This document shows positions 1,601-58,838 of a stretch of 62,749 nt of DNA, piece by piece; positions within the stretch are counted from its first letter, which is position 1, and every line of letters begins with the position of its first letter. The notes beneath the pieces were generated by a model. That model saw only the letters and a program-made list of their open reading frames with translations. It had not been told where the DNA came from and did no database searches. Position numbers and translations under genes: made by a program. Location: the IMG/VR virus record IMGVR_UViG_3300042520_000420, positions 1 to 62,749 of that record. One strand, written 5' to 3'. This DNA is from a virus. Taxonomy: Duplodnaviria; Caudoviricetes.

Positions 1601-2425
1601 ATGGCAGAAGTAAAACCCCCTACCTTGCCATCTACTGGCGGCGTTGAATCGTCTACGTTATCTAGTTATGCTGGGCCGTATGTAACCGGTATGCTCGGCA
1701 AGGCGGAGGCATTGACAAATGCCCCGTATCAGACCTATCAAGGCCCATTGACCGCTGGCGAATCAGGCCTTCAGTCAAAGGTGTTTCAGGGCTTGGGCAG
1801 TTTAAACTTCCCCGGACAGCTAGGGCAGACATTTTCATCATCTCAAGCTCCAACTATTGGATCTGATGGTCAGCCTGTTGGTGGTGGAGGTATTGCCTCC
1901 CAGTACATGAATCCATATTTGCAAAGCGTTCTTGCTCCTCAGCTTGCGGAGCTTCAACGTCAAGCAAAGATTCAACAAATGCAAAATGCTGGTACAGCAA
2001 CCAAGATGGGCGCATTTGGAAGCTCAGGGCAAACCCTAATGGACACTGAGTCTCAGCGAAATGCACTTGATCAAATGAGCAAGACAATTGGCACTGGCTA
2101 CTCAAATGCCTACGATAAGGCGCTGGGTCAATTCAATGTTGAGCAAGGTCAGGCTAAGACTCTTGCCGACATGATGACCAAGGCAGGAGAAGAGCAGCGT
2201 GGCATTGAGCAGCAGGGCGTTACCGCAGATTTAAACGAATTCAATGCGCAGCGTGATTACCCACAAAAGATGTTGCAGTTTCAGCAATCTATGTTGCAGG
2301 GCTTGCCAATTTCTACTGTTGCCACTACCCCAAATCAACAAAGTGGATTGGGAAGCCTTACCTCGACAGTTGGCGGCTTGGGTAATTTGATGGAAAGCCT
2401 GAAAAGCCTCGGCATAAAATTTTGA
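1601..2425 (+). CDS. Putative DNA ejection/pilot protein
   Basis: Q/G/A-rich; YMNPYLQSV and GAFGSS motifs typical of podoviral ejection proteins; hydrophobic Gly-rich C-terminus. Confidence 0.55.
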   Translation: MAEVKPPTLPSTGGVESSTLSSYAGPYVTGMLGKAEALTNAPYQTYQGPLTAGESGLQSKVFQGLGSLNFPGQLGQTFSSSQAPTIGSDGQPVGGGGIASQYMNPYLQSVLAPQLAELQRQAKIQQMQNAGTATKMGAFGSSGQTLMDTESQRNALDQMSKTIGTGYSNAYDKALGQFNVEQGQAKTLADMMTKAGEEQRGIEQQGVTADLNEFNAQRDYPQKMLQFQQSMLQGLPISTVATTPNQQSGLGSLTSTVGGLGNLMESLKSLGIKF

Positions 2426-2435
2426 GGGCAAATAA

Positions 2436-4034
2436 ATGAATTTAGTCGCCATCCAAGAGAAATTAAAAGATTTCCCTAACCAAATAATCATGGCCTATGC
2501 CAATGGGCAGAACCCAGAGGTTCCCGCCTATATGGCTCTTGCTGAACTCCAGCGCAGAAAACGTATGCAGCAGGGTTCCAAAGAGATGCCTAAAGAGACT
2601 GTCAAGGATAGGATTGAGCGGGAATCTGTCCAGCAGACAATGCCATCAATGGAGGCCCAACAACCCCAACAACAACCCCAACAAGCCCAACAAGCCCAAC
2701 AAGAAATGCCAGCAATGGCGGCTGGCGGCATTGCCCGCCTACCAGTTGGCGATATGTTCAATTACCGTGATGGCGGTATTGTTGCGTTTTCTCAAGGCGA
2801 TGCTGTTGAGTCCGAGATGTCAGGCTCTACGCCTATGAAGCGTGGCAAGACTAGGGCTGAAGTGCGTGAAGAGCTAGAAAGGGAGCGAGAAGAGAATATG
2901 CGGCGTGTTGCAATGGAGGGGCAGAATCAACGCCCCGTAATGCGCCAAGATCCTCGCATAGCGGGAGTAACTCCCCCAGAAGAAACCGTGCAAGATGCGC
3001 AACCTGCGCCACCGCCTGCCGCTAGACCCATCCCTAGAGTCGCCGCTCCCCAGCAAGCCGGTGGTGTAAACGCATTGCCACGCAGAGACTTGGCTATGGA
3101 TATGTTGAAGAAGTCTCAGGAAATGACAACTCAGCAGGCTGAAATTCCAGAAACATATGAAGCCATCATGGAGCGGGAAAGAAAAAGAAACCCAGCTCTT
3201 AAAAAACCTATTGGTGAAGATTATCAAAAGAAACTTGGAGAACTCTCTGAGTTTGACAAAGAGGCCCGAGGTAAATTTGGTGAGCGTGAGACCGCTAGAG
3301 CTAAAAGAGATTTCTTTGATTCTCTAATTGCAGCAGGCGAAGCAACCCGTGGTGGCGGTGGCATTGGCTCGTTACTGGGTGGGTTTGGCAGAGCATCAAG
3401 CGCCGCAAAAAATGCCGCTGATGAGCGAGCAGCTAGACAAGAAGCCTTGCAGCGTGAGCAAGATTTAAACATGGCTAAGTTGAACTCTGAGATAGAGAAC
3501 TTACGCCGTGCCGAAGCCATTGGCGATGTCAAATCTCAGCAAGAATCTTTGACAAAGATTGCTGACATAAAGAACACCATGAAACAAAATGCAATGATCT
3601 TGCAGGCTCAGGCTACTCAGACTGCCGCCATGATTCGTGGTCAGGATCTGCAAGCTAAAACTGCTCGGGAACAGACTTCCGCTTACCGTAAAAACGAGTT
3701 GTTTGATATTGCAGAGCGCCTAAGATCTCAGTATCCAAAGCTCTCCGAAGAACAGTTGTTACAAAAAGCGCTGCCGTTTACACGGGCTGGTGTTGGTGCA
3801 GAATCAAAGTTAGATGCGGCAACCGAAGCCAGATTAAAGCAACTTGATGTAAAGCGTTTGCTAAATGCTCAGGTTTATGCCAGCGACCCCCAAAAGCTTG
3901 CCGCAGCAAACAAGCCTTTAAATGACGAAGAGGCTAGGATTAGAGGTGGCGCTGGTGGATCTGGTGGTGGAGTTAGATTTAAACTAGATGCAAACGGTGA
4001 TCTTAGAGATGCAAACGGTCGTCTTGTTCAGTGA
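2436..4034 (+). CDS. Putative ejection/internal virion protein (coiled-coil)
   Basis: 532 aa, helical and charged, with MAAGG and YRDGG motifs; lies directly before the giant protein. Confidence 0.55.
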   Translation: MNLVAIQEKLKDFPNQIIMAYANGQNPEVPAYMALAELQRRKRMQQGSKEMPKETVKDRIERESVQQTMPSMEAQQPQQQPQQAQQAQQEMPAMAAGGIARLPVGDMFNYRDGGIVAFSQGDAVESEMSGSTPMKRGKTRAEVREELEREREENMRRVAMEGQNQRPVMRQDPRIAGVTPPEETVQDAQPAPPPAARPIPRVAAPQQAGGVNALPRRDLAMDMLKKSQEMTTQQAEIPETYEAIMERERKRNPALKKPIGEDYQKKLGELSEFDKEARGKFGERETARAKRDFFDSLIAAGEATRGGGGIGSLLGGFGRASSAAKNAADERAARQEALQREQDLNMAKLNSEIENLRRAEAIGDVKSQQESLTKIADIKNTMKQNAMILQAQATQTAAMIRGQDLQAKTAREQTSAYRKNELFDIAERLRSQYPKLSEEQLLQKALPFTRAGVGAESKLDAATEARLKQLDVKRLLNAQVYASDPQKLAAANKPLNDEEARIRGGAGGSGGGVRFKLDANGDLRDANGRLVQ

Positions 4035-4041
4035 GGTTTAA

Positions 4042-7000
4042 ATGACTATCGAAGTCGAGTTAGTTGATGGTCGAATTCTTGAATTTCCTGATGGGACTTC
4101 TCCCGCTGTTATTCAAAGCACAGCCAAAAAGGCTACGCAGGACAAGTATTTTGGTGTCAGCACCGCAGAGCTAAAGGCCGCTCCGTCTGCGCCAATGTCG
4201 TTTGGCGATACAGCAAGAGCTGGTATTGCTGGCTTGACTGGCGCTCTTGGCTCTGCTGTTTCTGCATTTGGTGCAGATACAGCCCCAGCCCAAGGACTGA
4301 GATCTCTGACTGAGTCAATACAGTCTGGCATGACTCCCGAGCGCCTTGAGGAGCAGCGCCGCCGTGATGAGTTGATGCAAAGGTCTGAGAAAGAAGGCCT
4401 TGGCGCTCAAATCTTGGCTGGTGCTGGCGCTGTTGCCGAAGCGCCAATTCAATCAATTGCACAAGGCTTGGGATCATCCATCCCTGCTATTGCCGCAGGC
4501 CTTGCTACCGTGGTTGCTGGCGCTCCTGTAGCCATTGCTGGAGCAGTGGGTCTAGCAGCCCGTGCCATTTTTGGCGCAGTCCAAGGCGCAGGTGAAGCCA
4601 AGAGCGACATCTATTCCAGCGTCAAAGCCAAGCTCATGGAGTCTGGCAAGAATGAAGCCCAAGCTGAAGCTGAAGCCGCAAAGGCTCAAGAGTATGTAAG
4701 TAAAAACCTGCCCGGAATTATTGGTAGCTCTTTGGCTGGTGCAGTTGATGCAGCCACCGGTGTTGAATCTATTGTTGGTAAAGGTGCGTTTAAATCTGCC
4801 GTTAAACCGCTTGAGAAGCCAAGCCTGCTGCGTGAAACGTTTAAACAAGCAGGCAGCGAAGCTTTGCCAGAAGGTCTTCAGGCTGGTGTTGGTCAGGTTA
4901 CCCAGAATGTTGCACTGCAAAACGCAGGATTTGATACATCTACATTTGAAGGTGTAGCGGGGTCGGTTACCCGTGACGCATTGATGGGCGCATTGACCGG
5001 TGGAGCCGTGACTCCACTCCAGATGTCCAGCCTGCGCAGAGACTATGAGCTTGATAAACAGCGCAAGGTTGAAGAAGAAAACCGTGTTTTAGAAGAAAAA
5101 ATTGCAAAGGAAGAGCAAGCCCGTCAAGAGCAGATAATCAAAACCCAAGAAGATCTTGGTTTAAACAGGGAGTTTCCTGCGCTGCCCGCCCCGGCAGAAC
5201 AGATCGAAGAGCCTCCTGTTGCTGTTGATCCTTTAAAGAACCCGCTTGGCAATATTCAAAAGAACGAGATCCCCGAGATCTCTCAAACCATTGATGAGTA
5301 CCGCAAGAATGCCAACCTGCCTCCTCTGAAGGATTATTCTGTTGAAGATCTTGTGGATGCCATGCCCGGAACCGACCCAAGGGGCGAAGAAGGTCTTTTA
5401 AATGAATGGCTTACAGCAAAGACCGGATGGACTAAAGCAGATAAGATGACCGCCCAGCAAGTGCTGGATCAAGCCAAGCTTAAGAAGATTGAAACCAAGA
5501 CCAAGGGATTTGAAGACTTTCTTGCCCGTGTCACCGGTTATAGAGATCTGACAACCATGTCGCAGCCGCAGCTTTTTGCTGCGTTTAAAGCTCTATCTGC
5601 CTTACCTGAATCTGAAACAACTCAGATCCTCCCAGAGGGAACAAACGCCAGCCGCTTCAGCGAAGACCAATACCGCAAAGCATTAGATGGCGTTGACCAA
5701 TTGCTGGATGGCTTGGTGTCTAAGGATGGAAAGCCAATACCTCTTGATCGTGGTCAGGTGATCAAGGAGATCCAACAATACACTGGTCTAACGAAGACTG
5801 AACATGCTGAATCCATTTTGGATGAGGCTATTCGCCTTGGTGACTTAGACTCCGTTAAGACACCTCGTTACCGCATGGTTGACCCAGCCACTGGGCAGCT
5901 TAAGGGCGTAGCCTATGACAACCGCAAGGCTGCTGACGCTGCTGCCAAGCAACGTGGCTACGATGTAAAGCAGATCACTGCCGAGGGCATCACTCCACCA
6001 TCCACCGCTGCCACGCTGCCAGAAGGTTTTGACATCCGCAAGGGCTCGTTTAAAGAGGGTGAAGCCCCAGAGGGCTACTCCGTCATGGCGGGTGATGAGG
6101 CTTTGTATCAGGCAAAAACATCGGAAGAAGCTGCCACCAAGAAAGCCAGCTTTGAGAAAACCCGTGCTGGTATGGCTAACGCCATTGACAATCAGATTGC
6201 CCAGAAGCTCAACTCCGTAGAGCAAAGCCAAAGCCGTTTAAACAAGATGGAGGCTATGGGCGAGGGGCAGACCGACAACTACGCCAAGGCTAGAGGCAAA
6301 CATGCCCAGCTTGAGGAAAGTGTTGCTAAGGATGTCGAGGGTTTGCTTGAAAAGAAAGCCAAGTACGAGAGCCCCATCAGCATTAAGGCGTTTGGCAAGA
6401 AGGCGGTAGGACGCACAGGCTACACAGTCTTTGAGGGAGGGGAGGCAACAGCTACCTACCCAACCCGCACAGCCGCAGAAGAAGCAATTCTTACAGCAAG
6501 ATCAGATGATGAATTAAAGCAACTTACCAAAGACCAAGGCAGGCGTGGTCTGGGCAAGCGAGCCGAAGCCGAGATCCAGCGCAGAGCCGCTCCACCTCCC
6601 ACTGAAGGTAAGAAGGTCTCTGAAGTCTTGGAAGGCATTGAAGAAGAGAAGAGAAAACCAAAGCCCATACCTCCTGAAGTTAAAGCAAACATTGAGAGGC
6701 TTGAGAAGGAACTTCGTCCATTGATGGAGAAGCTCGGTCTGGGCAAGGTGACTTTAAACGTAGTTCAGGATATTGAGAACAACGCAGAAGGTGCGTTCTC
6801 CAAGACCTTGATGCGTATTGCGTTGGATTCGGAAAAACCTGTGCGCACCATGCGCCATGAGTCCATCCACGCATTGAAAGAACTTGGCTTCTTCACGCCT
6901 GCGCAGTGGAACACCCTACAACGCATGGCAAAAGACAAGTGGATCCAGACTTATCTGAAAGATAAGAATGCAATCCACAAAGGTAAATCCATGACACGCT

Positions 7001-10000
7001 TTGATGCGTACATGGATATTTACGGTGGGAATATGGACACTATCATGGAGGAGGCCATCGCTGATGCGTTTGCTGACTTTGATGTAAACAAGGCTCCTCC
7101 CGGTCTCATCACTGCCCTGCTCAACAAAATCCGTGCGTTCTTTGAGGCTTTGCGTAATGCAATGGCTGGCGCTGGATTCCAGACTGCCGATGAAGTCTTT
7201 GGCATGGTTGAGCGTGGTGAGTTGGTGGAGAACCCATCTGCTTGGAAAGCCACACCCGAGGATGAGGAAGAGGCGGCAAGGTACTCTGTCAACAACGGTA
7301 TTGATCCCTACATATCAGGCGGTCAGCTTAATGTGCCAATGGAGTCGGATGGAACAAAGTACTCCATCAAACAGGCTTACACCCCAGAACAAATAGCCAA
7401 GTCGGCGCAAGCAACAAACCGCAAGGGTGAGACAAAGAAAGTCAAGATCCTTAAGAACGATCCAATAACTGGCTTGCCTCTAAACCAAAACGGCACAGTC
7501 ACGCTGTATTACCCAACCGACAACGCTGGCGCACGAGAGCTTGCCAGAACCAAGCGTTTAAAGGGTCACTCACCAACAGCCAATCGCATTTACTTGACCA
7601 ACGAGTCCAGTGCGCCTGCTGTTGCCACAAATCCCGGAATGATTGAGCAACCCTTGGGTGGCGCAAATGTTTTGCTTGAGATTGATCCATCCTTGCTGCA
7701 CGAGCTAGAAGACCGTAAAGATGGGCGCAGAGATTTCTTCATTCCAATTGCGGAAGGCGCAGTGTTTGCCAAGAAGATGAAGAAGACCAAGCTGTTTACA
7801 CTGAACGCTTTGCGTACCAAGGGTTTGCACCCAGACCGCACACTAAATCAGGTAACCAAGATGGTTAACGATGCGGCGGCTAAATGGGCGGCTTCAAATG
7901 CAAAAGACCGCAGTGTCATGGCGAAGCAAGCCAAAGACACATTGCTTGCAGACCACAACATCACCAATCTGTTTGGAGCCAACTCTAAGCTAGAGAAGAC
8001 CAATATAGGTGAGTATGGGCTAACTTACAAAGACAAGAACGTCATGTCCACTGGCCTTGGCTTTGCCTCGGCTCAAAAGATTAATGATGAGCAACGTGCC
8101 ACCACTTGCCCTCAGTCGGGTATTTGTGAAGATCTGTGCCTTGGCGAAACATCAGGGCAGAACAGGCTCTATGGTGGCGAAGGTCAGTGGCGCTCAGGCC
8201 CCCGCTTGTCCCAGTATCTAAAGACAGAGGCCTTGGTTGTTAATCCTGAAGCTTTTGCGATTGCAATGATTAAGCAAATCACATCGTTCCGTAAGGCTGC
8301 TCAGGATTTGGGTTATTACCCAGCCATCCGTTTAAACGTTACATCTGACTTCAATCCAAAAACATTTGAGAACATCATCAACATGTTCCCTGATGTTATG
8401 TTCTATGACTACACCAAGCTAGACACCAAGCCAATCGCTCCCAACCACCACCTGACTTACAGCTCCACTGGAGCTTCTCAGGTTGTTGATGACGACATTG
8501 TTTACAACAAGTTCTCTAATTGGGATCGCATGGTGGACAAGGTTCTACCAAGCGGGCGCAATGTTGCTATGGCCTTTACAAGCCGTAGTGCAATGCCTAA
8601 GTTTGTGATGGATCAGCGCACAGGCAAGAGTTTTGAAGTTTGGAATGGTGATGAGTACGATGCTCGATTCCTTGATCCAGTTAGGAAAGATGGCGATGGC
8701 TGGATTATTGGTCTAACCAACAAGGACAACACTACCAAGCCAGAGGATGCTGCCAAGAAACACAATGGTTTCTTCCTTGACTATGACCCCGAGCGGGATG
8801 GCGACACCCTTGTCATTCAAAATCAAGAAAAACTCAAGACTGGCGCACCTCAGCCAATAACTTTTACCAAGAAGACTGAAAAATTTAGCCTTAGAGATTT
8901 GCCTCCAGAGCCGGGTACTCAGCCAATTCCAAAAGGAATGGTGCGCTTATACCACCAGACAGACTCTGAATCTCTTGCCAATATTTCCAAAGAAGGCTTG
9001 TCTATTAAATATGCCAAGGGTGTCGAAGGCCCCAAAGCTATTTATGCGGGTGAGACTCCTTTCTACGGCCCAGCAGATACAAGGCCAACCGTAGAATTTT
9101 TTGCTCCAAAAAATCAGTGGGACGCTCCTTTTGTTTTGGCTGATGTAAGCCCAAATCAAATCATTGCAGCCCATTACCCTTGGCACAAGCAGGCAAGATA
9201 TTTGGAGGCAGAGCCAGACTCAATGAAGGTTGCGTTGGATGGCGGGTTTGACAACTTGACAGATCCTGACACGGCAACGGCTGTTAAATACATCAAAGAC
9301 AAATACAAAAATCAAAAGCCTGAGAAGTACAGTCTCCGGTCTGCTCCTGAATCTGAAGAGTTTAAACAGTGGTTTGGCGACAGCAAGATTGTTGATTCCA
9401 AAGGCAAGCCCGTATTGCTTTACCACGCCACCAACTTCTCAGAAGAAGACAAGATTGACCAAGAGAACGTCTTCTCTGTGTTTAAAGAGTCTGATGACGG
9501 TAAGCTTGGCGCAGGCATCTACGCCTCATCCCTACCCAAATACGCAGAAAGCTATGGCCCAACTGGCACAGTGATGCCTTTGTACGCCTCCATCAAAAAT
9601 CCTTTGGTCATTAATATGGATGCCGATGGAATTGAGACTGACGCAGATGGCTATCAAAGCGTCACAACCAAGGTTGGTATCAGAGCCAACACTGCGCTTG
9701 AGGGTGTAGCCAAGAAGATACTGGCTAAGAACCCTGACTTCAAAACAGAGAGTAAACGCTATCTCAGAGGCTCAGAGGTTCAAGAGTTATTGGAGATGGG
9801 CGGGTATGACGGCGTTGTTTTAGAAGACAACGAAGGCAACTTTGTAGAGGTCAATGCGTTTAAACCTGAACAGCTTAAGTCGTCCATTGGGAACATTGGG
9901 ACTTACGATGCATCCAACCCAGACATTCGCTTCAGCCTGAAAGAGGCCCCAAATACACCTGAGTTTAAACAGTTCATAAAAGACAGTAAGGTTGTAGATG

Positions 10001-48705: not shown

Positions 48706-48717
48706 AGGAGAAATAAA

Positions 48718-49194
48718 GTGGCAAACACCCAATCAATGTGTACTTCGTTTATGGGCGAGTTGATGACTGCGACTCATAACTTTGGCACTGCACCCATACG
48801 GGCATCAGGCGCTACAGACGCTTTCAAGGCGGCGTTATACCTAGCATCGGCTACCGTAAATGCAGCCACGACTGCGTACACAGTCAGTGGTGAAGTATCT
48901 GGTGCGGGTTATGCGGCTGGAGGTGTGGCGGTGACTATGGCAACCCCTCCAACGGCAACAAACTCTTCGGCAACGGCGGGGGTGGCTTTTGTCACACCTT
49001 CTGCGTCAATCACATACACCACGGTAACTTTGACCACGGCGTTTGATGCGGTGCTGATCTACAACTCAACACAGAGCGATAAGGCTGTCAGCGTCCACAC
49101 GTTTGGTTCACAGACCATTACGGCGGGTACTTTCACTTTGACTATGCCTGCAAACACTACATCAACCGCTTTGCTGCGTTTGGCAACTACTTAA
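48718..49194 (+). CDS. Tail structural protein, paralogous to 48092-48514
   Basis: TSFMGEL...KAALY...LIYNST...HTFG...GTFTLTMP. Confidence 0.65.
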   Translation: MANTQSMCTSFMGELMTATHNFGTAPIRASGATDAFKAALYLASATVNAATTAYTVSGEVSGAGYAAGGVAVTMATPPTATNSSATAGVAFVTPSASITYTTVTLTTAFDAVLIYNSTQSDKAVSVHTFGSQTITAGTFTLTMPANTTSTALLRLATT

Positions 49195-49203
49195 GGGTAG
49201 GTC

Positions 49204-50115
49204 ATGTCTCTCGGCTGGGGCGACAGTACTTGGGGCGCAAACGGCTGGGGCGGCACTCTTGAAGCAACCGGAGATGAAGCAACAGGAGCCGTTGGAACAG
49301 TTGCGCCGGTCATTACTGTTGCATTAAGTGGGGTTCTAGCTTCTGGGAATGTTGGGACTGTTGTTGAGACAAATAACCCAACGGAAGACGGCAATATTGC
49401 TTACGGAAACGTGGGCAACGCCGCACCTGTTCTCACAATTGCTTTAACTGGGACTGCGGCATCGGGTGGGGTCGGGACAGTTACCGTTGCGGAAAGATCG
49501 TTTGCAATTACAGGCGTTGCGGCTTCTGGCGATGCTGGGATAGCGACTCCCAACACAACAATTGCGCTGTTTGGTGTATCGGCAGCGGGATTAGTTGGAA
49601 CGGTAACGGTCGCAGAAAGATCATTGGCCCTTGCCGGGGTGTCAGCTACTGGTGCAGTTGGGGTGATGACCCCCAGTACGTCCGAAGGGGAAGATGGTGA
49701 GGTAGCCTATGGTTTTGCCGGGGATGTAGGGAATGCTCGCACAGTTGCTTTGACAGGTGTCTCTGCCGCTGGTGCAGTAGGTACGGTCATCCACAGCAAA
49801 GATGTTTCCCTCACTGGTAACGTTTCCACTGGGGCTGTTGGATCGGTGGGAGGGAGCGAAAAAGTCTTATCGCTGACAGGCAACCAAGCACAAGGATATG
49901 TTGGAACTCTGATTGCGGTTTATTGGAAGATAATTGACGATAGTCAGACGGCGGATTGGGGGACAATCTCTAACATACAAACGGCTGATTGGTCAAATAT
50001 AGATGACACGCAGGCCGCAAACTGGCAAAATATCAGCAACCCGCAAACTCCCGGCTGGTCGTTGATTGATGATGAACAAACCCCGAATTGGGAAGAAATT
50101 GAGGTAACAACATGA
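49204..50115 (+). CDS. Repetitive tail-associated protein
   Basis: LTGVxAxGxVG repeats; Trp-containing repeats at both ends. Confidence 0.6.
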   Translation: MSLGWGDSTWGANGWGGTLEATGDEATGAVGTVAPVITVALSGVLASGNVGTVVETNNPTEDGNIAYGNVGNAAPVLTIALTGTAASGGVGTVTVAERSFAITGVAASGDAGIATPNTTIALFGVSAAGLVGTVTVAERSLALAGVSATGAVGVMTPSTSEGEDGEVAYGFAGDVGNARTVALTGVSAAGAVGTVIHSKDVSLTGNVSTGAVGSVGGSEKVLSLTGNQAQGYVGTLIAVYWKIIDDSQTADWGTISNIQTADWSNIDDTQAANWQNISNPQTPGWSLIDDEQTPNWEEIEVTT

Positions 50116-53100: not shown

Positions 53101-54026
53101 TTGGCTCAAATTCATTGGGCGCAAACACAACTGGCGGTAGCAACAGTGCCTTGGGTTATCTGTCTTTATTTGCAAACACAACTGGAACAAATAACGCCGC
53201 ATTAGGAAGGTCGGCCTTAGAACAAAATACAACTGGCGCAACCAATACTGCGTTTGGTGCTAACGCTCTTGCCGCTAACACCACAGCATCTAACAACACT
53301 GCTGTAGGTTATCAGGCTTTGGATGCTAACACTACAGGTGATTCTCATGCCGCTGTCGGTGTTAATTCGCTTGGTGCAGTTACTACAGCCACTCATTGCA
53401 CTGCTGTTGGTATTGATTCGGGTGTTGCAGTTACAACTGGAGTAGATAACACTTGCATTGGAAGTAATGCTGGTAATAACATTACAACAGGCGCTCAAAA
53501 TACTTGTGTTGGTCGTCTTGCTAGAACAAGCGCAGTTGGCTCAAATCGCCAAATTGTTATAGGTTATAACTTAACAGGACAGGCTGATTCAAATGTAACT
53601 CTTGGCGCTGACACAGGAAAAATCTACAATGCGTTCACAGTAAATGCTACTTGGACACAAACATCTGATGGACGGATGAAGAAAAACATCCAAGAAGATA
53701 CTCTTGGTTTGTCCTTTATAAATCGTTTAAGACCAGTCAAATACGAATGGAAAGCAAGCAACGAACTTGATAAAGATAACTCATATTATGCGGAAGAAAA
53801 TAAACGCACAACTGGCGTTGTCATGCACGGACTTATTGCTCAAGAAGTCAAGGCGGCTCTTGATGCAGAGGGTGTAGATACTTTTGCTGGTTGGGATATG
53901 GGAGCAGATGGCATACAGGCAATCAGCCGTGAGATGTTTATAAGCCCACTAATCAAAGCAATCCAAGAACAGCAAGCCCTCATCACAGCCCTGACAGCAC
54001 GAATCACCGCACTCGAATCCACTTAA
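50112..54026 (+). CDS. Long tail fibre with 16-aa NTTGxxNTAxGxxAL repeats and a C-terminal intramolecular chaperone (peptidase S74)
   Basis: About 50 tandem repeats; TSDGRMKKNI...LRPVKYEW...GLIAQEV...LIKAIQEQQ. Confidence 0.85.
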   Translation: MTTAYTSLLGLALPVTGELSGTWGDTVNNSITSLLDSAIAGTQTLTADTTLTTTTGAANQSRQAILLCSPASANITITAPAQSKIYTVINTSAVYTVKIRGVGPTTGVTLAVSESAVVAWNGTDFIRISSNSATTGNFTVNGNLIVTGNTTLGDADTDTITQTASYVTGTQLKSAKTATNTLNLAAYDTDGAAYTNLITLTASTTPTLALTSTGVGTINNMSIGATTASTGAFTSLTASTTLGVTGISTLTAGAVVEGLTVGRGASAVATNTVVGTTALAANTSGSNNSAFGTQSLQANTTGAENSAFGLYSLLGNTTGSNNSAFGRGALQANTTASNNTAVGYQSLTANTTGTENNSFGNLALFTNTTGSQNNAFGTGTLQANTTASYNNAFGKQALLANTTGSANCAFGHQSLLSNTTGNTNVAFGGTDLATGAALQLNTTGSANTAIGAGALKSNTTASNNTAVGFQAGNGSTTGINIVAIGYQAMNGVNTGNSNNAVGYQALFANTSGTQNSSFGTQSLLANTTGGFNTALGNEALKANTTSSGNTAVGYQAGFSQTIVSSTYPSTYLGYQAGYTNVTGVANTAVGASALYANTGDNNTGIGQGALRANTTAINNTAVGSFALNVNTTGNNNTSVGQGALPTNTTGSSNTAIGQASLFSNTTAANNTAVGYQAMYNNTGQSSDAFGAQALYSLTTGSQNQAFGREALYSTTTGSNNVAMGRSALQANTTASNNTAVGYQSLLANTTAGNNTAVGFQSLLANTTGTDHTAVGKSALASNTTGLYNTAVGFSALTSNTTASQNNAFGYQALNANTTGSNNNAFGLQALAANTTGASNTAFGHTALTANTTGASNTAIGLQALDSNTTASANTAVGTNALTAVTTSPSNTAVGNAALASVTTGSGENVGIGNRAGFAITTGQQNIIIGDNAAASSATGTFSGVVIIGDNAGLVNTASDNVFIGIVAGTANTTGNNLVAVGANALDANTSGVSNTGVGSNSLGANTTGGSNSALGYLSLFANTTGTNNAALGRSALEQNTTGATNTAFGANALAANTTASNNTAVGYQALDANTTGDSHAAVGVNSLGAVTTATHCTAVGIDSGVAVTTGVDNTCIGSNAGNNITTGAQNTCVGRLARTSAVGSNRQIVIGYNLTGQADSNVTLGADTGKIYNAFTVNATWTQTSDGRMKKNIQEDTLGLSFINRLRPVKYEWKASNELDKDNSYYAEENKRTTGVVMHGLIAQEVKAALDAEGVDTFAGWDMGADGIQAISREMFISPLIKAIQEQQALITALTARITALEST

Positions 54027-54044
54027 CCATAAAGGAGCTTAAAA

Positions 54045-54257
54045 ATGGAAATTGAAATCACAGCAGAACAAATTGCACAGCATTACTCTGCCGCTATGGA
54101 CAGCGTAAACCTCATCAATGCAGGTCAGCCAGAAGGCATGACAGCAGAAGATTGGGCAGATTGCTTGTCACGCAACAAAGAGCATTTGAAGATTATGCTT
54201 GCCAAAGATTTTTGGACAACAGAGAATCTGACTCCATTGCGTACAGCATCAGCATAA
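54045..54257 (+). CDS. Fibre-associated small protein
   Basis: AAMDSVNLI...RNKEHLKIML; AAGGAG RBS. Confidence 0.65.
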   Translation: MEIEITAEQIAQHYSAAMDSVNLINAGQPEGMTAEDWADCLSRNKEHLKIMLAKDFWTTENLTPLRTASA

Positions 54258-54302
54258 GGGGTACTCACCGCTGCCCCATCTCAGCGGTGCTTTGGAGAAA
54301 CC

Positions 54303-54470
54303 ATGAACGACAAAAAAATTGAACTGACCTTGGGTCTGGTGAATGCTGTTTTGCAGTATTTGGGTACACGCCCCTATGCTGAAGTGGCTGACATTATCCA
54401 AGCCATTCGGGAGCAAGCTATTCCCCAAGTGCCAATGCCTGAAGCCAAAGCTGAAGAAGCTGCGGAGTAA
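54303..54470 (+). CDS. Small protein (not in the ORF track)
   Basis: VNAVLQYLGTRPYAEVADII; GGAG RBS. Confidence 0.65.
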   Translation: MNDKKIELTLGLVNAVLQYLGTRPYAEVADIIQAIREQAIPQVPMPEAKAEEAAE

Positions 54471-54472
54471 TC

Positions 54473-55150
54473 ATTGATCCTCTCAGCATTCTTTTTGCCG
54501 CCAATGCTTGTGTCGCTGCTATCAAGCAGGGATGCAAGCTATACAAAGACGCTAAAACGTCTTTCATGGAGATCAAAAAGACTGTTAATGAGGTCGCTGA
54601 GATATATAAGGAAGTTACTGGGTTTTGGAGTAAATTTAGTAACTTCTTCAAGTCCAGCGACAAGCCCGCCCCGACCAAGCCTGTGGCGAAAAAGGAAGCC
54701 TATGTCGCCGTTGACGAAACCCAAGTCATGGCAGACATCGTTGTCCAGCTATCCCAATTTTTCAAACTGCAAGAACAGCTTGCCGATCACATAAGGGAAG
54801 AGGAAGAGAAGAGCAAATCAGTCTACGACCCTGACGCTAATCTGATGGAAGCCGCCCTTAAGCGGGTCATGGCTCAAGACCAGATGGCGTTGCTGGAGAC
54901 TGAGATTAGAGAAGCAATGGTGTACGGCGCTCCTAAAGAGATGGGAGCTTTGTATAGCAAAGTGTTTGATATGCGGGATGTCATTAAGGTAGAGCAGGAC
55001 AAAGCAAGGAAGAAGCGGGATGATGAATCATGGCAACGCAGGGAAGAGGAGCGGCTCCTAAAAGAAAGGCAGGCGTATCTGCTGGCGACTTTCCTATTCC
55101 TCCTATATATGTGGTTGCTCCTCGGCCTCTTGCACAGGATTGGGAAATAG
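54473..55150 (+). CDS. Coiled-coil protein with a C-terminal transmembrane helix; probable ATT start
   Basis: Frame open from 54473 (IDPLSILFAANAC...) behind GGAG; the track uses the internal ATG at 54566. Confidence 0.6.
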   Translation: MDPLSILFAANACVAAIKQGCKLYKDAKTSFMEIKKTVNEVAEIYKEVTGFWSKFSNFFKSSDKPAPTKPVAKKEAYVAVDETQVMADIVVQLSQFFKLQEQLADHIREEEEKSKSVYDPDANLMEAALKRVMAQDQMALLETEIREAMVYGAPKEMGALYSKVFDMRDVIKVEQDKARKKRDDESWQRREEERLLKERQAYLLATFLFLLYMWLLLGLLHRIGK

Positions 55151-55317
55151 TTGTGGGGTGGATTGCAGCTTGTGTTCTTGTAGTATTGTTGCTGCCGCTG
55201 ATTGGAATGCTGTACATGGATGTGCTGCAAACCAAAAAGGAAGCCCAAGCGCAGATTGAGAAGATGGAAAAGTTACGCAGAGAAGTTGAACAACAGAAAC
55301 GTGGGGAAGAAAAATGA
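55030..55317 (+). CDS. Membrane protein (start uncertain)
   Basis: Hydrophobic helix followed by coiled-coil. Confidence 0.45.
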   Translation: MATQGRGAAPKRKAGVSAGDFPIPPIYVVAPRPLAQDWEIVVGWIAACVLVVLLLPLIGMLYMDVLQTKKEAQAQIEKMEKLRREVEQQKRGEEK

Positions 55318-55661
55318 GTGAAGAAAAAATCCAAGCTATGGAAACCAAAAGCGCTTTGGTTGAAAAAATCACATTTGCTTTGTTGCCTCTTTTGTTTTCG
55401 TGCGTGGTCTACCTTATGTCTGCGTTATCTAATTTATCGCATGAAGTGACCATCCTAAACAGCAAAATAAGCTTGGTTGTGACTTCTGACAACAAGCAAG
55501 CCAGCAACACGGGCGCTGAATTGGCAAGAGAAAAGTTGCGTCAAGACTTGGAAAAAGAAATCCAAAAGAACAGGGATGATATTCAAGTCAATCGTTTGCA
55601 CATAGCCATATTGGAAGACAGGGCTGGAATGAAAACTACATTCAAAAGGGAAGATAAATGA
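55314..55661 (+). CDS. Membrane-anchored coiled-coil protein
   Basis: ITFALLPLLFSCVVYLM hydrophobic helix. Confidence 0.6.
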   Translation: MSEEKIQAMETKSALVEKITFALLPLLFSCVVYLMSALSNLSHEVTILNSKISLVVTSDNKQASNTGAELAREKLRQDLEKEIQKNRDDIQVNRLHIAILEDRAGMKTTFKREDK

Positions 55662-56170
55662 TTCCAATAGTCGCATCCCTCCTCGGTAGCCTAGCCGAAA
55701 ACGGCTTAGGGTTACTGTCGTCTGCCATCCAAGCCAAAGGCAAAGAGGTGGTTGAGAAAACACTTGGCGTAAAAATTCCCGATGCTCCTACCGCAGAAGA
55801 TGTCAGCAATTTGCGCCAACTTCAATACGAACACGAAGAGCGTTTGCTTGAACTTGGCATTGAGAAGGCCAAGATGGAGTTGGAAGAGATGAAGGTGCTG
55901 GCGGCAACGGCGCAGAACGAAGATGACAACGTAACAGACCGCTGGCAGTCAGATATGAACAGTGATTCTTGGCTGTCCAAGAACATTCGCCCCATGAGCC
56001 TGATTGCTATTTTCTTTGGTTATTTCCTGTTTGCCATGATGAGCGCCTTTGGTTTAAACGCCAACGAGTCCTACGTCCAGTTGCTTGGGCAGTGGGGGAT
56101 GTTAATCATGGGCGCTTACTTTGGCGGCAGAACCATTGAGAAACTTGCAGAAATGAAAGGCAAAAAATGA
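55658..56170 (+). CDS. Holin (3TM, gene-transfer-agent type)
   Basis: DSWLSKNIRP...GAYFGGRTIEK; adjacent to the endolysin. Confidence 0.75.
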   Translation: MIPIVASLLGSLAENGLGLLSSAIQAKGKEVVEKTLGVKIPDAPTAEDVSNLRQLQYEHEERLLELGIEKAKMELEEMKVLAATAQNEDDNVTDRWQSDMNSDSWLSKNIRPMSLIAIFFGYFLFAMMSAFGLNANESYVQLLGQWGMLIMGAYFGGRTIEKLAEMKGKK

Positions 56171-56508
56171 GTTTAAACACAGAACAAGCTGCGTTTTTGC
56201 TGGACACTTGTAAGCTAATCCAGTACGCTACAGACCAAGGATTCGTGGTGACCGGCGGGGAACTTGCCCGTACTCCCGAACAACAAGCCATTTATTTCAA
56301 GACGGGGCGTTCCAAAACAATGAATTCCATCCATCTAAAGCGGTGCGCCATAGACTTGAATTTTTTCAAGGACGGAAAAATCATTTGGGACAAGGTAATC
56401 CTTGCCCCTCTAGGAGCGTATTGGGAGACTCTGCATCCAAAGAACCGCTGGGGCGGTAACTTTAAGTCTCTTGTTGATTGCCCTCATTTTGAGCGCAATG
56501 TAGGTTAA
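56167..56508 (+). CDS. Endolysin, peptidase M15 (L-Ala-D-Glu peptidase-like)
   Basis: RTPEQQ...SIHLKRCAIDL...WGGNF...DCPHFE. Confidence 0.85.
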   Translation: MSLNTEQAAFLLDTCKLIQYATDQGFVVTGGELARTPEQQAIYFKTGRSKTMNSIHLKRCAIDLNFFKDGKIIWDKVILAPLGAYWETLHPKNRWGGNFKSLVDCPHFERNVG

Positions 56509-56510
56509 AA

Positions 56511-58838
56511 ATGCTCAAGAAAATCCTTCTCAAGCCCGGTGTAAACAAAGAGAACACTCGTTACACAAGTGAGAACGGGTGGTATGACTGCGACAAGATT
56601 CGCTTTCGCCAAGGTACGCCAGAAAAGATAGGCGGTTGGGAGAGAATTTCCTCCAGCACGTTTTTGGGTGTGTGCCGATCTTTGTGGGCTTGGGTGACGC
56701 TGGGTGCGCAACAGTTGCTGGGCGTAGGAACAAACCTCAAGTTCTACATTGAGAATGGCGGTAGTTACTACGACATTACCCCATTAAATCAAACCAACAC
56801 GCTCACAAACCCGTTTGATATGGTGAGCGGTTCCTCCACGGTGACCGTAACTGATGCTAACGGCGGATACTCAAACAACAACTACGTCACATTTACCGGC
56901 TCTTCGGCAAATGGCGGTATTACCTTGTTGGGTGAGTATCTGCTAACAACGGCTTCAGTGGCTAATACTTATACGGTTGTTGCCTCCTCCACAGCAGCCA
57001 TATCAGCAGCTAATCCTGCTGTATTTACCACTCAGTTTAAGTTAGCTAATAACGTAGAGGTAACGTTAACAAGCACAGGAATGTTGCCTAGCCCGTTTGT
57101 GGCAGGCACAACCTACCATGTTGTGTCAACTTCAGGATATACATTTAGCCTTGCTGCCACATCAGGCGGAACGGCAATAAGTACGATTGGATCGATTCAA
57201 TCTGGCATTCATACAGTAACTGCAAAAGCCTCATCTACTGCCGCTGCCGGTGGTGGAACTGTTAGGGCAGCATATCAAATTGCTACTGGCGAAGCATTTG
57301 CCGTAAGTCTTGTTGGTTGGGGCGCTGGTGGCTGGGGGTCAGGAACGTGGGGGATAGGAACAGAATCAACCCAAACATTCCGTCAGTGGAGCCAGAGTAA
57401 CTTTGGGGAAGATTTAATCTTTGGCCCAAAAGGTGATGGCATTTACTACTGGGACGCTTCATTTGGATTGGTTGGCACAACATTTACCGTTACTATTGCA
57501 ACACCTGCGATTTTGTCTACATCCATTACGCTTACGAATGGTATGGTGTTCGTATTAACAACAGATGGCGCTTTGCCTACGGGTTTAAACGTTGGTCAAA
57601 ATTACTACGTCATTAACACTACCGGTACATCTTGTGAGTTATCAGCTACTTATGGCGGCGTTGCTATTAATACATCAGGATCGCAGTCTGGTACACACAA
57701 AATTGCGTCTAGAGCAATTGCTTTAGAGGACTACGGCGGCGCATCAGCTGTGCCTACAGAACAGAATTACTTGCTGGTGTCAGACTCTAGTAGGTTTGTT
57801 TTTGCATTTGGCGCTACGGAGTTTGGTTCATCTACATTTAATCCAATGTTGATTCGCTGGTCAGACCAAGGCGATCCATTTAACTGGACTCCCAGCGCAA
57901 CAGTACAGGCTGGATTTACTTATCTGTCTCACGGCTCTGAGATCGTGACAGCAATACAAGCTCGCCAAGAAATTTTGGTTTGGACTGATTCGTCTTTGTA
58001 TTCGCTTCAATACCAAGGCGCACCCGTTGTTTGGTCTACACAGATTGTGGGCGATAACCTTTCCATTGCAGGAGAAAACGCAGTGGCTTATGCCAACGGC
58101 GTAGCCTATTGGATGGGTGTGGATAAGTTTTATAAATACGATGGTAGGACTCAAACGCAAAACTGCGATCTACGTCAGTATGTTTTTTCGGACATAAACA
58201 AGTCGCAGTTTGCTCAGGTAGTTGCCGGTACAAATGAAGGTTTTAATGAGATTTGGTGGTTCTATTGCTCCGGCACAAGCATCACAATTGATAGCTATGT
58301 AGTGTTTAACTACATGGAGAATCAAGGTCAAGGCGCTTGGTACTACGGGTCTATGGCTCGCACAGCTTGGCTGGACAGTGGATTGAGAGATTATCCAATT
58401 GCAGCCACATACGACTACAACATTGTGAACCATGAGCAGGGTGTTGATGACAACGCTACTGGAACCACCTTGCCTATTGAGGCTTTTATTACTTCTGCCG
58501 AGTTTGATTTGGAGGATGGTGATCGCTTTGGCTTTGTGTGGCGGGTTGTTCCTGACATTACGTTCCGTGGATCCACCGCCGCCAGTCCTCAAGTAACCAT
58601 GTATCTCAAGCCCATGCAGAACTCAGGTTCTGGATATAACGTCCCACCCTCTGTTGGTGGAGAGAATAATGCCACGGTGACAAGAACGGCAATACTTCCA
58701 ATTGAAGAATTTACCGGTCAGATCTACACCCGTGTGCGTGGGCGACAGATTGCTATGGAGGTAAGGTCTACTGCTGCTGGAGTGACTTGGCAGCTTGGCT
58801 CTCCTCGACTTGACATCAAGCAGGATGGCAGACGATGA
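56511..58838 (+). CDS. Tail tubular B / nozzle-like protein
   Basis: 775 aa, beta-rich; RFRQGTPEKIGGW, IRWSDQ, EIWWFY, RVRGRQ. Confidence 0.72.
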   Translation: MLKKILLKPGVNKENTRYTSENGWYDCDKIRFRQGTPEKIGGWERISSSTFLGVCRSLWAWVTLGAQQLLGVGTNLKFYIENGGSYYDITPLNQTNTLTNPFDMVSGSSTVTVTDANGGYSNNNYVTFTGSSANGGITLLGEYLLTTASVANTYTVVASSTAAISAANPAVFTTQFKLANNVEVTLTSTGMLPSPFVAGTTYHVVSTSGYTFSLAATSGGTAISTIGSIQSGIHTVTAKASSTAAAGGGTVRAAYQIATGEAFAVSLVGWGAGGWGSGTWGIGTESTQTFRQWSQSNFGEDLIFGPKGDGIYYWDASFGLVGTTFTVTIATPAILSTSITLTNGMVFVLTTDGALPTGLNVGQNYYVINTTGTSCELSATYGGVAINTSGSQSGTHKIASRAIALEDYGGASAVPTEQNYLLVSDSSRFVFAFGATEFGSSTFNPMLIRWSDQGDPFNWTPSATVQAGFTYLSHGSEIVTAIQARQEILVWTDSSLYSLQYQGAPVVWSTQIVGDNLSIAGENAVAYANGVAYWMGVDKFYKYDGRTQTQNCDLRQYVFSDINKSQFAQVVAGTNEGFNEIWWFYCSGTSITIDSYVVFNYMENQGQGAWYYGSMARTAWLDSGLRDYPIAATYDYNIVNHEQGVDDNATGTTLPIEAFITSAEFDLEDGDRFGFVWRVVPDITFRGSTAASPQVTMYLKPMQNSGSGYNVPPSVGGENNATVTRTAILPIEEFTGQIYTRVRGRQIAMEVRSTAAGVTWQLGSPRLDIKQDGRR

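Follow-up and report, generated by a model that had tools for sequence, protein, structure and literature searches.

The complete virus record IMGVR_UViG_3300042520_000420 of IMG/VR, a tailed phage genome of 62,749 bases that we refer to as the window, contains 43 exact copies of the 8-bp palindrome GTTTAAAC. The enrichment of this word is real, extends across a clade of related phages, is under strong selection and acts at the level of DNA. The word is symmetric on the duplex, overlaps a promoter, and has been edited by a single letter in particular lineages. As a tentative and quite possible explanation, we propose that GTTTAAAC constitutes a genome-wide network of sites for a sequence-specific DNA-binding protein encoded by the phage; that a protein of this kind reads the word, which protein it is, and what it does so for are points that we infer.

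The earlier note on this DNA had counted 43 copies by eye. An exact recount gives the same number and recovers all 35 of the coordinates it provided; the other eight copies start at positions 24622, 24689, 24758, 24826, 32368, 32436, 32555, and 40159 (Table 1). A second-order Markov model predicts 1.1 copies in the window, and 100 dinucleotide-preserving shuffles contain 1.13 on average and 4 at most, none reaching 43. Shuffling synonymous codons within each open reading frame (ORF) separately, with the protein and the per-gene codon usage held constant, leaves 2.05 ± 1.38 copies in the ORFs of a 76-ORF map (n = 300, maximum 6), compared with 33 observed. The core TTTAAA is itself enriched, both in the whole genome (93 versus 21 expected) and in ORFs (77 versus 24.6). 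Accordingly biased codon pairs are seen at the protein-coding level: TTA-AAC encodes 35 of the 89 Leu-Asn pairs, where single-codon usage would give ~7.6, and TTT-AAA encodes 33 of the 60 Phe-Lys pairs (~18.7 expected). The earlier note's remark that copies lie in differing frames is borne out, with 20 in-ORF copies in the Leu-Asn (L-N) frame, 13 in the Phe-Lys (F-K) frame, one spanning the Val codon and stop of TerS, and others intergenic, with no preference for frame or strand. Ten of the 43 copies are not within a single ORF, a ~3-fold excess given that non-coding DNA makes up just 7.5% of the genome, and proximity to gene boundaries gives a weak signal (8 of 43 copies within 30 nt, versus 10.6% at random). 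No regular spacing was found among close copies. The surrounding bases are nearly information-free, with a weak preference for Y before and R after the word, so GTTTAAAC is a bare short word and no piece of a longer repeat.

To define what is selected, we profiled all single mismatches of the word in G000, G002, and G003 against a third-order Markov model. In these three genomes, GTTTAAAC is enriched 16-fold, the mutual reverse complements GTGTAAAC and GTTTACAC 8.3-fold, ATTTAAAC 4.0-fold, GTATAAAC 2.5-fold, and CTTTAAAC 2.2-fold, and the other eight single-mismatch classes stand at 0.3–1.4-fold. The many one-mismatch copies reported in the earlier note are thus a property of the former classes and not of the remaining eight. 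Base preference follows the order G>A>C>T at position 1 and T>G>A at position 3, and positions 2 and 4 accept T only. Such a graded profile is typical of a protein-binding site, unlike an all-or-none restriction site. The number of sites flanked by G...C agrees with a half-site prediction in four genomes (43 versus 34.9, 37 versus 37.7, 39 versus 38.7, and 49 versus 41.7), indicating that the two halves behave independently. Asymmetric variants are found 82 times in sense and 89 times in antisense relative to genes, and this lack of orientation bias implies reading on the DNA duplex, or on either strand alike, and not in RNA. Together with the lineage variants described below, these counts show that the selected unit is YGTTTA(A/C) and not the palindrome as such, with GTTTAAAC consisting of two units placed back to back, one per strand. 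The density of this unit is similar in all nine genomes compared (1.6–3.0 per kb).

The word is a shared feature of relatives. We assembled 80 IMG/VR loci with TerL 77–97% identical (753 kb, of at least 445 contigs identified by TerL) and 80 loci centered on the annealing protein Sak (of at least 597 IMG/VR contigs identified by Sak). The TerL loci contain 564 copies of GTTTAAAC, which is the top 8-mer palindrome in most of them, and the Sak-centered loci show the same pattern; G+C content in the two samples ranges from 42 to 57%. Complete relatives carry 37, 39, 39, and 49 copies. Outside the clade, DSL-LC04, a lake phage with a TerL 57% identical, has no copy in 50 kb, and eight Sak-related outgroup loci (L166–L173) have zero or almost zero.

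Individual copies are conserved well above background, within and between ORFs. Of the 30 copies that can be aligned with a relative at 84.4% nucleotide identity, 27 are unchanged, as opposed to 34.4% of all 8-mers; in a second close relative the figures are 16 of 18 and 41%. Flanking bases in these close relatives mutate around intact copies. Further away, G003 retains 6 of 16 copies (background 8.9%), G002 none of 13, and G001 none of 14, although 5 of the 14 sites in G001 retain TTTAAA with altered flanks. At greater distance, therefore, the positions of copies turn over and their number stays. Genes common to three compared relatives hold 0.67 copies per kb versus 0.31 per kb in genes without a homologue there, and the tail-fiber region at 46.8–56.0 kb holds none, a pattern that slow accumulation in resident DNA would give. 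Taken together, these comparisons point to purifying selection that keeps ~0.6–0.8 full sites per kb, or 1.6–3 units per kb, across a large clade of uncultivated lake phages. The stretch is present in 24 lake or freshwater DNA sequencing runs from 23 studies, with no RNA run among the matches listed, and none of the variant positions listed for these runs falls inside a GTTTAAAC copy, which is weak evidence.

We assign a negligible probability to the word having no function and arising merely from composition, codon usage, amino-acid content or a repeat family. A maximal-order Markov model does 'explain' 34.9 of the 43 copies, but its 7-mer counts already contain the word, and the dinucleotide, second-order and synonymous-codon nulls yield one or two. 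The near-informationless flanks exclude a longer repeat, 90% of sites are conserved against a background of 34%, and the enrichment persists over the wide G+C range of the relatives; on these four grounds this reading was tested and rejected. The earlier note had named two outcomes that would speak against its proposal, loss of the enrichment under codon or composition control and its absence from relatives, and neither occurred. Its positively selected, dispersed DNA-level signal survives the controls, is common to relatives, conserved above background, and unoriented.

The most informative observations come from lineages that have edited the word in different ways. The complete 62 kb genome G007 has 41 RTTTAAAY sites, namely 34 ATTTAAAC, five ATTTAAAT, and two GTTTAAAC, the last being ~6-fold rarer than the 12.3 predicted from half-sites. 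L147, which belongs to a different sublineage, has 17 ATTTAAAC, six ATTTAAAT, and no GTTTAAAC, and the 8.5 kb locus L012, from another sublineage with replaced outer letters, has no GTTTAAAC, six ATTTAAAT, and six ATTTAAAG. G001 and G010 still enrich TTTAAA (83 and 68 copies) but have lost the preference for G, which makes up 19% (31/166) and 29% (40/136), respectively, of the bases flanking TTTAAA. In G012, G013, L026, and L027, TTTAAA is not enriched, and YGTTTACR is enriched instead. Specifically, GTTTAC occurs 49 times in G012 (10.2 expected) and 66 times in G013 (17.3 expected), preceded by C or T in 46 of 49 and 57 of 66 cases, and the asymmetric unit is found 58 times in sense and 38 times in antisense in these two genomes combined. 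A DraI-type avoidance of TTTAAA in G012 and G013 was considered and dropped, as the depletion is not significant (3 versus 3.1 expected and 2 versus 4.7).

We take GTTTAAAC to be the PmeI site, TTTAAA the DraI site, and ATTTAAAT the SwaI site. The palindromes CCTAGG, GTCGAC, and CTCGAG are wholly absent from G000, G007, and G013, where 4–10 are expected, and CGATCG, TCGCGA, and CGTACG are also absent from the window, again with 4–10 expected. Missing 6-bp palindromes of this kind, standing beside an enriched TTTAAA, look like the usual mark of restriction pressure on unmodified DNA. The general rule invoked in the earlier note, that phages avoid palindromes, hence holds here too, and some sublineages have shed the perfect 8-mer while keeping its one-letter variants. 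The removal of the perfect 8-mer in G007 and L147, with the best one-letter variant kept at full density, suggests escape from a rare-cutting enzyme with preservation of function.

In the mechanism that we propose, GTTTAAAC would be the symmetric and strongest form of YGTTTA(A/C), read on double-stranded phage DNA regardless of gene, frame or direction of transcription, and the ~40 copies would form a genome-wide site network for a phage DNA-binding protein. A phage-encoded reader is the simpler assumption because the candidate host genome, described below, is not enriched. The first candidate reader is a 76-residue LexA-type winged-helix protein encoded immediately ahead of TerL. Its residues 1–59 match Pfam PF01726 with 43.9 bits (cut-off 23.7, E = 2.1e-11), and it is devoid of the C-terminal protease/dimerization domain of LexA. 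All nine long genomes encode the protein, as do 78 of the 80 TerL loci, upstream DNA being missing from the remaining two; among the first 22 loci listed, its gene adjoins or overlaps TerL in 19. This translational coupling suggests a link to packaging. Four positions of the recognition helix, S..N.HR, are constant in every lineage listed, just as the GTTTA core is. Cultured phages have homologues of just 36–40% identity. Such a protein would bind as one monomer per unit, without a dimerization domain, which would explain the independent halves and the tolerated one-sided variants. Its recognition helix was also compared between word-rich and word-poor relatives and is identical in both, so that the protein neither covaries with the change in flanks nor is excluded.

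The second candidate is a putative 102-residue ribbon-helix-helix (RHH) protein, which would act as a dimer; RHH dimers such as MetJ are classic examples of proteins that read 8-bp palindromes. No Pfam hit was obtained for the protein of the window itself, which has an Arc-like PHROG match of 0.006; of 48 homologues, 13 match Pfam RHH_3 (best 2e-9) and five match RHH_1. A homodimer model of the N-terminal 50 residues scores 0.42 versus 0.00 for the best control, passing a mark that 20 of 30 solved pairs and 1 of 23 single chains attain; contact agreement is 92% or more, pLDDT is 74 or more, and residues 7–13 of the strand pair mutually, a pass that may reflect likeness to solved RHH dimers. 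The predicted fold has a mean pLDDT of 79.7, and a Foldseek search against the PDB gave no match at E ≤ 0.001, just short local matches to RHH antitoxins at E 5–9. The family is clade-restricted, with 79 clusters that all derive from metagenome contigs of up to 62 kb; a match is present in 68 of the 80 Sak loci, the eight outgroup loci without the motif (L166–L173) have none, and no homologue was found in cultured phages. A zinc-binding protein of the FDxHR type, a weak candidate, was set aside: it is missing not only from G001 and G010, in which the G flanks are lost, but also from the incomplete G012 and G013, which kept G, leaving no consistent link. It is present in G007 and L147 and lacking near L134 (G share 0.65).

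One site that may bear on function is the promoter-like site of the winged-helix–TerL operon, where the copy at 32436 overlaps the -10 hexamer TAAACT. The arrangement TTGCGA/TTGCAA-17-TAAACT is homologous in most distinct upstream sequences of relatives. In L022, L029, L053, and L068–L075, the -10 lies exactly 6 nt ahead of the ATG, which implies a leaderless mRNA in those relatives; the window gene has a leader that includes a GGAGG ribosome-binding site. The promoter copy of the GTTTAC lineage is GTTTACACT, with TACACT as the -10, so the promoter copy follows the genome-wide word. A word lying over the -10 of the winged-helix protein's own promoter would correspond to the classic layout of an autoregulated operator. 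The purpose of the network would then be to regulate, from its promoter, the late operon of terminase and structural genes. The copies might further mark phage DNA for the terminase-linked protein, giving packaging specificity, or might form a pool of titratable sites by which late expression is tied to the copy number of the genome.

Several observations weigh against a phage-encoded reader of this kind. G001 and G010 have the same winged helix and an RHH homologue, yet they lost the G preference, which fits poorly with a single unchanged reader. LexA-type domains are normally dimers on operators of at least 16 bp. The putative base-contacting strand of the RHH protein varies by lineage (F-L-A-R-L, F-M-T-Y-L, F-L-S-Y-L) and the word does not, and no RHH protein was found in the 81% complete G013. 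The true operator of the winged-helix protein could be a second palindrome in the relatives' promoters, GAACGTTC and its kin. As many as 33 of the 43 copies are intragenic, where an operator has no obvious role, and their spread is uneven, with the gap from 46.8 to 56.0 kb already mentioned. Finally, -35 partners score at least 4.5 in 6 of 86 site orientations (7.0%, versus a background of 5.1%), with mean scores of 2.44 and 2.49.

The second palindrome sits between the -35 and -10 of the winged-helix promoter, with a further copy ~100 bp upstream (L018–L045, L051, L067–L078, and G011). It reads GCGAACGTTCGC in many lineages, GAACACTTGTTC in the G003 group, and TTGTTCGTACGAACA in L077 and L079, varying as an operator that co-evolves with its repressor would. 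It may belong to whichever of the winged-helix and RHH proteins does not read GTTTAAAC.

The same protein would have a larger role in a bolder version of the proposal, which we consider rather a long shot. The word would be a viral 'self' tag: by reading YGTTTA(A/C), the TerL-coupled winged-helix protein would let the packaging motor and the late switch pick phage DNA without a unique pac site. Rare-cutting enzymes of hosts would target this tag, and at least two sublineages, arguably a third, would have escaped independently by one-letter edits from GTTTAAAC to ATTTAAAC or GTTTACAC that leave the tag readable. Phage DNA would be ~30 times denser in the word than host DNA, making the tag a viral counterpart of bacterial DNA uptake sequences.

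The gene content of the window frames the alternatives. Recognized virion and packaging genes encode TerS, TerL, portal, capsid, adaptor, and tail-spike-like proteins, and a 3,223-residue polyvalent protein is presumably injected along with the DNA. For replication and recombination, the phage encodes a T7-gp4-like primase/helicase, an SSB-like protein, the annealing protein Sak, a PD-(D/E)XK exonuclease, RusA, and an HNH nuclease; further genes encode CobS/CobT-like AAA+ and vWA proteins and an SprT-like protein. Sixty-three ORF references were scanned against Pfam and/or PHROGs, among them every ORF of at least 190 residues except one (198 residues), with ~25 small ORFs outside. No methyltransferase domain was detected in these scans, in agreement with the earlier note, and neither were a DNA polymerase, RNA polymerase, sigma factor, integrase or CI-type repressor. 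The clade seems to combine a host polymerase with a primase/helicase and recombination set of its own. Cultured relatives are distant, the nearest (TerL identity up to 58%) being HTVC023P-type pelagiphages and a lake phage; 023Pt_psg01 is a related cultured record. According to a passage of PMC9599517, HTVC023P-type phages are defined by a PolA gene, and the parts of that paper covered by a term search contain no mention of palindromes, promoters or TTTAAA. Searches for tRNA, tmRNA, and Rfam families gave no match in the window.

The host side was probed with one Burkholderiales metagenome-assembled genome (MAG), linked to the clade by the binning of a 5.2 kb contig with 84% TerL identity, which makes it a weak test. 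This genome has 68 copies of GTTTAAAC in 3 Mb versus 110 for the reversed control and is therefore not enriched; a host-genome-wide word of the Chi or uptake type, to which the earlier note had compared the signal, finds no support in this one candidate host.

Among the other explanations, one modeled on the cyanobacterial word HIP1 (GCGATCGC) is unlikely. TTTAAA would be methylated by a host enzyme or by a phage DNA methyltransferase that escaped recognition, and would persist either because methylated sites are needed, for instance to time replication or packaging, or because a biased repair that depends on methylation converts near-matches, a mechanism put forward for GCGATCGC in cyanobacteria. 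The architecture is the same, a 6-bp palindrome flanked by G...C, and G001 and G010 keep TTTAAA enriched without the flanks, as some cyanobacteria keep the inner site alone; sublineages with alternative words recall alternate HIPs. The enrichment is of the same order as the 15- to 300-fold given for HIP1 in a passage of PMC5861425, and one-letter deviations gather at the first and last letters, as excerpts of PMC4390886 describe for HIP1. This account has to contend, however, with the absence of a methyltransferase domain from the scanned ORFs and of enrichment from the candidate host, which host-driven repair bias should mark. Near-matches are 2- to 8-fold enriched, not depleted, and the strongest variant, GTTTACAC, and the form found in G012 and G013 break TTTAAA yet stay selected. 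We also regard as unlikely a role of the copies as replication or recombination sites, whether for iteron-like loading of the phage primase/helicase or an initiator, preferred priming or cleavage by the conserved HNH nuclease to start recombination-dependent replication by Sak, exonuclease, and RusA. Four copies form an array that starts 2 nt after the primase/helicase stop, 67–69 bp apart with hairpins in between, and GTTTAAAC occupies the same spot in G003 and G011 and a variant in G007, but no such array follows the primase gene in G001 and G002. Two copies flank a perfect DnaA-box pair next to the conserved AT-rich element GGGGTATATATATTTTT, a replication and recombination set without a recognized DNA polymerase would suit such sites, and unoriented copies fit a function on both strands. 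Their mean spacing is ~1.5 kb, but it is uneven, with gaps of 9.2, 3.9, and 3.6 kb. A nuclease cutting 43 palindromes in its own genome would be hazardous, no origin-binding domain was recognized in the primase/helicase, and primase recognition sites measure ~3–5 nt and need no enrichment.

It is rather improbable that the word is read by the host, as a recruitment site for a host factor, a decoy that titrates a host regulator or defense component, or a Chi-like signal that tames a host exonuclease. Its constancy across phages of 42–57% G+C could reflect a conserved host factor, and DnaA boxes at the late promoters indicate that these phages use host DNA-binding proteins. Excerpts of PMC3784561 report Chi enrichment in phages that depend on host recombination and Chi avoidance in the class with recombination functions of their own, to which the present phage belongs. 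The candidate host MAG shows no Chi- or uptake-like abundance, and a graded, two-sided and symmetric profile is ill-suited to a single-strand reader such as RecBCD. Very improbable, finally, is a promoter element, that is, a -10-like box for host RNA polymerase or a phage sigma-like factor, comparable to TATAAATA at T4 late genes. The word does supply the -10 of one conserved promoter, with leaderless spacing in many relatives, it is ~3-fold in excess outside ORFs, and several copies stand just upstream of ribosome-binding sites. However, -35 partners are no commoner than at random, the T needed for a -10 follows the word in just 4 of 43 copies, and the copies do not show the sigma-70 combination of a -35 at 16–18 nt with a final T. 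Nine copies are inside one 9.7 kb gene, a palindrome has no direction and its asymmetric variants are unoriented to genes, and no RNA polymerase or sigma gene was recognized in the ORF scans.

Table 1 Positions of the word, its leading variant and associated features in the window
Feature	Position	Strand	Remarks
GTTTAAAC copy	1800..1807		ORF 1601-2425(+), L-N frame
GTTTAAAC copy	4839..4846		Polyvalent-protein ORF 4042-13713(+), F-K frame
GTTTAAAC copy	5159..5166		Polyvalent-protein ORF, L-N frame
GTTTAAAC copy	6236..6243		Polyvalent-protein ORF, L-N frame
GTTTAAAC copy	8330..8337		Polyvalent-protein ORF, L-N frame; kept in 84%-identical relative
GTTTAAAC copy	9360..9367		Polyvalent-protein ORF, F-K frame; kept in close relative
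GTTTAAAC copy	9858..9865		Polyvalent-protein ORF, F-K frame; kept in close relative
GTTTAAAC copy	9963..9970		Polyvalent-protein ORF, F-K frame; ATTTAAAC in close relative
GTTTAAAC copy	10602..10609		Polyvalent-protein ORF, F-K frame; kept in close relative
GTTTAAAC copy	12149..12156		Polyvalent-protein ORF, L-N frame; kept in close relative
GTTTAAAC copy	13769..13776		HNH-endonuclease ORF 13694-13987(-), L-N frame; also kept in G003
GTTTAAAC copy	17628..17635		ORF 17538-17753(-), L-N frame
GTTTAAAC copy	17929..17936		Zinc-finger ORF 17884-18084(-), L-N frame; kept in close relative with both flanks altered
GTTTAAAC copy	19516..19523		Sak annealing-protein ORF 19390-20142(-), L-N frame
GTTTAAAC copy	21089..21096		RusA ORF, F-K frame; kept in G003, ATTTAAAG in G001
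GTTTAAAC copy	23256..23263		Primase/helicase ORF 22928-24619(+), L-N frame; GTTTAAAT in G001
GTTTAAAC copy	23826..23833		Primase/helicase ORF, L-N frame; kept in G003, GTTTAAAT in G001
GTTTAAAC array copy 1	24622..24629		Intergenic, 2 nt past primase/helicase stop; same spot in G003, G011
GTTTAAAC array copy 2	24689..24696		Intergenic; array spacing 67-69 bp, hairpins in between
GTTTAAAC array copy 3	24758..24765		Intergenic
GTTTAAAC array copy 4	24826..24833		Intergenic
GTTTAAAC copy	25260..25267		ORF 25089-25391(-), L-N frame
GTTTAAAC copy	25962..25969		3' end of ORF 25926-26246(-); directly upstream of ribosome-binding site of ORF 25694-25945(-)
GTTTAAAC copy	26259..26266		Intergenic; directly upstream of ribosome-binding site of ORF 25926-26246(-)
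GTTTAAAC copy	27347..27354		CobT-like vWA ORF 26820-28637(-), F-K frame; kept in G003
GTTTAAAC copy	27965..27972		CobT-like vWA ORF, F-K frame
GTTTAAAC copy	29532..29539		MoxR-like AAA+ ORF 28546-29991(-), F-K frame
GTTTAAAC copy	31495..31502		TerS 5' leader, 2 nt ahead of ATG
GTTTAAAC copy	32123..32130		TerS last codon (GTT, Val) and stop (TAA)
GTTTAAAC copy	32368..32375		Intergenic; just upstream of DnaA-box pair
GTTTAAAC copy	32436..32443		Overlaps -10 hexamer (TAAACT, 32439-32444) of winged-helix–TerL promoter; place conserved across lineages
GTTTAAAC copy	32555..32562		Within winged-helix ORF, L-N frame
GTTTAAAC copy	33773..33780		TerL ORF, F-K frame; TTTAAA core kept in G001, G002, G003
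GTTTAAAC copy	35689..35696		Portal ORF, F-K frame; lost in both close relatives
GTTTAAAC copy	36568..36575		Portal ORF end, 7 nt ahead of next ATG
GTTTAAAC copy	40159..40166		Intergenic, past capsid gene and its T-run
GTTTAAAC copy	43149..43156		ORF 43058-43297(+), L-N frame
GTTTAAAC copy	43428..43435		ORF 43300-43785(+), F-K frame
GTTTAAAC copy	45830..45837		Adaptor-like ORF 45625-46560(+), L-N frame; kept in G003
GTTTAAAC copy	46795..46802		ORF 46380-46976(+), L-N frame
GTTTAAAC copy	56052..56059		ORF 55658-56170(+), L-N frame
GTTTAAAC copy	56171..56178		Codons 2-4 of ORF 56167-56508(+)
GTTTAAAC copy	57583..57590		Virion-protein ORF 56511-58838(+), L-N frame
Second-ranked variant, GTTTACAC/GTGTAAAC	3064..59031		15 copies (1.5 expected)
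GTTTACAC	starts 3776, 7794, 18039, 18479, 21318, 23894, 50391, 59024	+	
GTGTAAAC	starts 3064, 11189, 14389, 33415, 33958, 37679, 56539	+	
LexA-type winged-helix protein, 76 aa	32464..32694	+	Pfam LexA_DNA_bind PF01726; stop overlaps TerL start (ATGA); candidate reader 1
Putative ribbon-helix-helix protein, 102 aa	18074..18379	-	Conserved C-terminal MRFPSGxSF domain; candidate reader 2
Phage zinc-binding protein (FDxHR type), 66 aa	17884..18084	-	Pfam PF24071, 1.3e-6; weak candidate
Promoter-like site, winged-helix–TerL operon	32416..32444	+	TTGCAA, 17 nt, TAAACT
TerS promoter, strong sigma-70-like	31404..31432	+	TTGACA-17-GATAAT; two DnaA boxes before it
TerS, small terminase subunit	31505..32128	+	PHROG 51, 2.6e-11; GTTTAAAC at 31495 and 32123 bracket the gene
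Polyvalent protein, 3,223 aa	4042-13713	+	ART-PolyVal ADP-ribosyltransferase domain, LPD38, GP88-like domain; 9 GTTTAAAC
Glycosyltransferase-like ORF, weak	41504-42274		Pfam E 1e-3 to 1e-2, below cut-offs; among structural genes; shared only by G003

The region around TerS, in which five copies of GTTTAAAC fall within 1.07 kb, has further elements. Perfect DnaA boxes (TTATCCACA, minus strand) form pairs at 31374–31399 and 32378–32397, each just upstream of the -35 of a late promoter (TerS and winged-helix–TerL); five occur in the genome versus 0.4 expected. Host DnaA may control late transcription, or the DnaA-box region may be an origin. The spacer between TerS and the winged-helix gene contains the element GGGGTATATATATTTTT at 32335–32351, with C-runs and a conserved ACGCTCTAATCCACTC-like stretch ahead of it. 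The element is also found in G002, G003, G007, G010, G011, and many L loci, with little other DNA identity, and could be a pac or cos site, an unwinding element or a promoter. In the array behind the primase/helicase gene, the hairpin AGCTCAYCWGRTGAGCT (24771–24787 in the window) stands beside copies of the word and recurs in G011 and G002, which are otherwise divergent there; it has no Rfam match, nor does the array at E up to 1.

Phages are known for shedding short palindromes, yet in this abundant clade of lake phages one palindrome, itself an 8-bp restriction site, is enriched. This provides a testable case of a selected genome-wide DNA word in a virus, with a small genome, two or three small candidate readers, and lineages that serve as natural 'mutants'. 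A 60 kb phage with a HIP1-like word may be a far easier system in which to learn what such words do. If the reader is linked to terminase, the word would represent a new way of choosing DNA for packaging, and if the edits reflect restriction by rare cutters, they would record an arms race over a sequence that the virus cannot abandon. In practice, GTTTAAAC is a simple signature for spotting the clade in freshwater metagenomes. We found no description of its abundance in phage genomes in the literature searched, where the publications found to name GTTTAAAC in connection with bacteriophages concern cloning or virology by title.

Among known systems, HIP1 is similar in being an 8-bp palindrome built as G, a 6-bp palindrome and C, present in and between genes and in all usable frames, conserved between genomes, and replaced by alternative words in some lineages. 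With 43 copies versus 1.1 expected, and 16-fold enrichment over the third-order model in three genomes, GTTTAAAC lies above the 15-fold lower end of the HIP1 range. Passages of PMC5861425 describe HIP1 as conserved within and between ORFs, as GTTTAAAC is (27 of 30, 16 of 18, and 6 of 16 in G003), and its function as still unexplained after 20 years of study as of 2018. Unlike GTTTAAAC, which occurs in a virus clade with no recognized methyltransferase, HIP1 is cellular and accompanied by methyltransferases of the inner site. The present word is also AT-rich, is not enriched in the candidate host and hence is not a word of a cellular genome as far as that host indicates, and has as its underlying unit an asymmetric 6–7-mer that survives breakage of the palindrome.

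The stoperators of Cluster A mycobacteriophages, as presented in excerpts of PMC9283540, are many sites of one monomeric phage repressor over a ~50 kb genome, in addition to a promoter operator. The density and the layout of an operator plus dispersed copies are alike; here the spread and the promoter overlap are seen directly, and the reader is a candidate. Stoperators are asymmetric sites of ~13 bp, oriented with transcription, mostly intergenic, and found in temperate phages with an immunity repressor and integrase. GTTTAAAC, in contrast, is 8 bp long, symmetric, three quarters intragenic, and unoriented (82 versus 89), and the ORF scans found no integrase or immunity repressor. KorA and KorB of IncP plasmids have short palindromic operators repeated over a mobile element of ~60 kb, with GTTTA half-sites in the KorA operator, and MetJ, an RHH dimer, reads 8-bp palindromes in met-boxes. 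Their sites differ in numbering 7–12 and lying near promoters, and no ParB, KorA or MetJ homologue was found here.

Avoidance of restriction sites is recognizable in the several missing 6-bp palindromes and in the 8-mer depletion of G007. It differs in that most of the clade is ~40-fold enriched in the very same restriction site, and in that the lost 8-mer is replaced by a one-letter variant at similar density (34 ATTTAAAC in G007). Chi and DNA uptake sequences are asymmetric, oriented, and enriched in the cell's own genome, whereas GTTTAAAC is symmetric, unoriented, and enriched in the virus but not in the candidate host. Chi and uptake sequences are short words that selection holds at high density and that let a protein machine discriminate between DNAs, and this analogy, drawn in the earlier note, underlies the reading of GTTTAAAC as a possible packaging tag.

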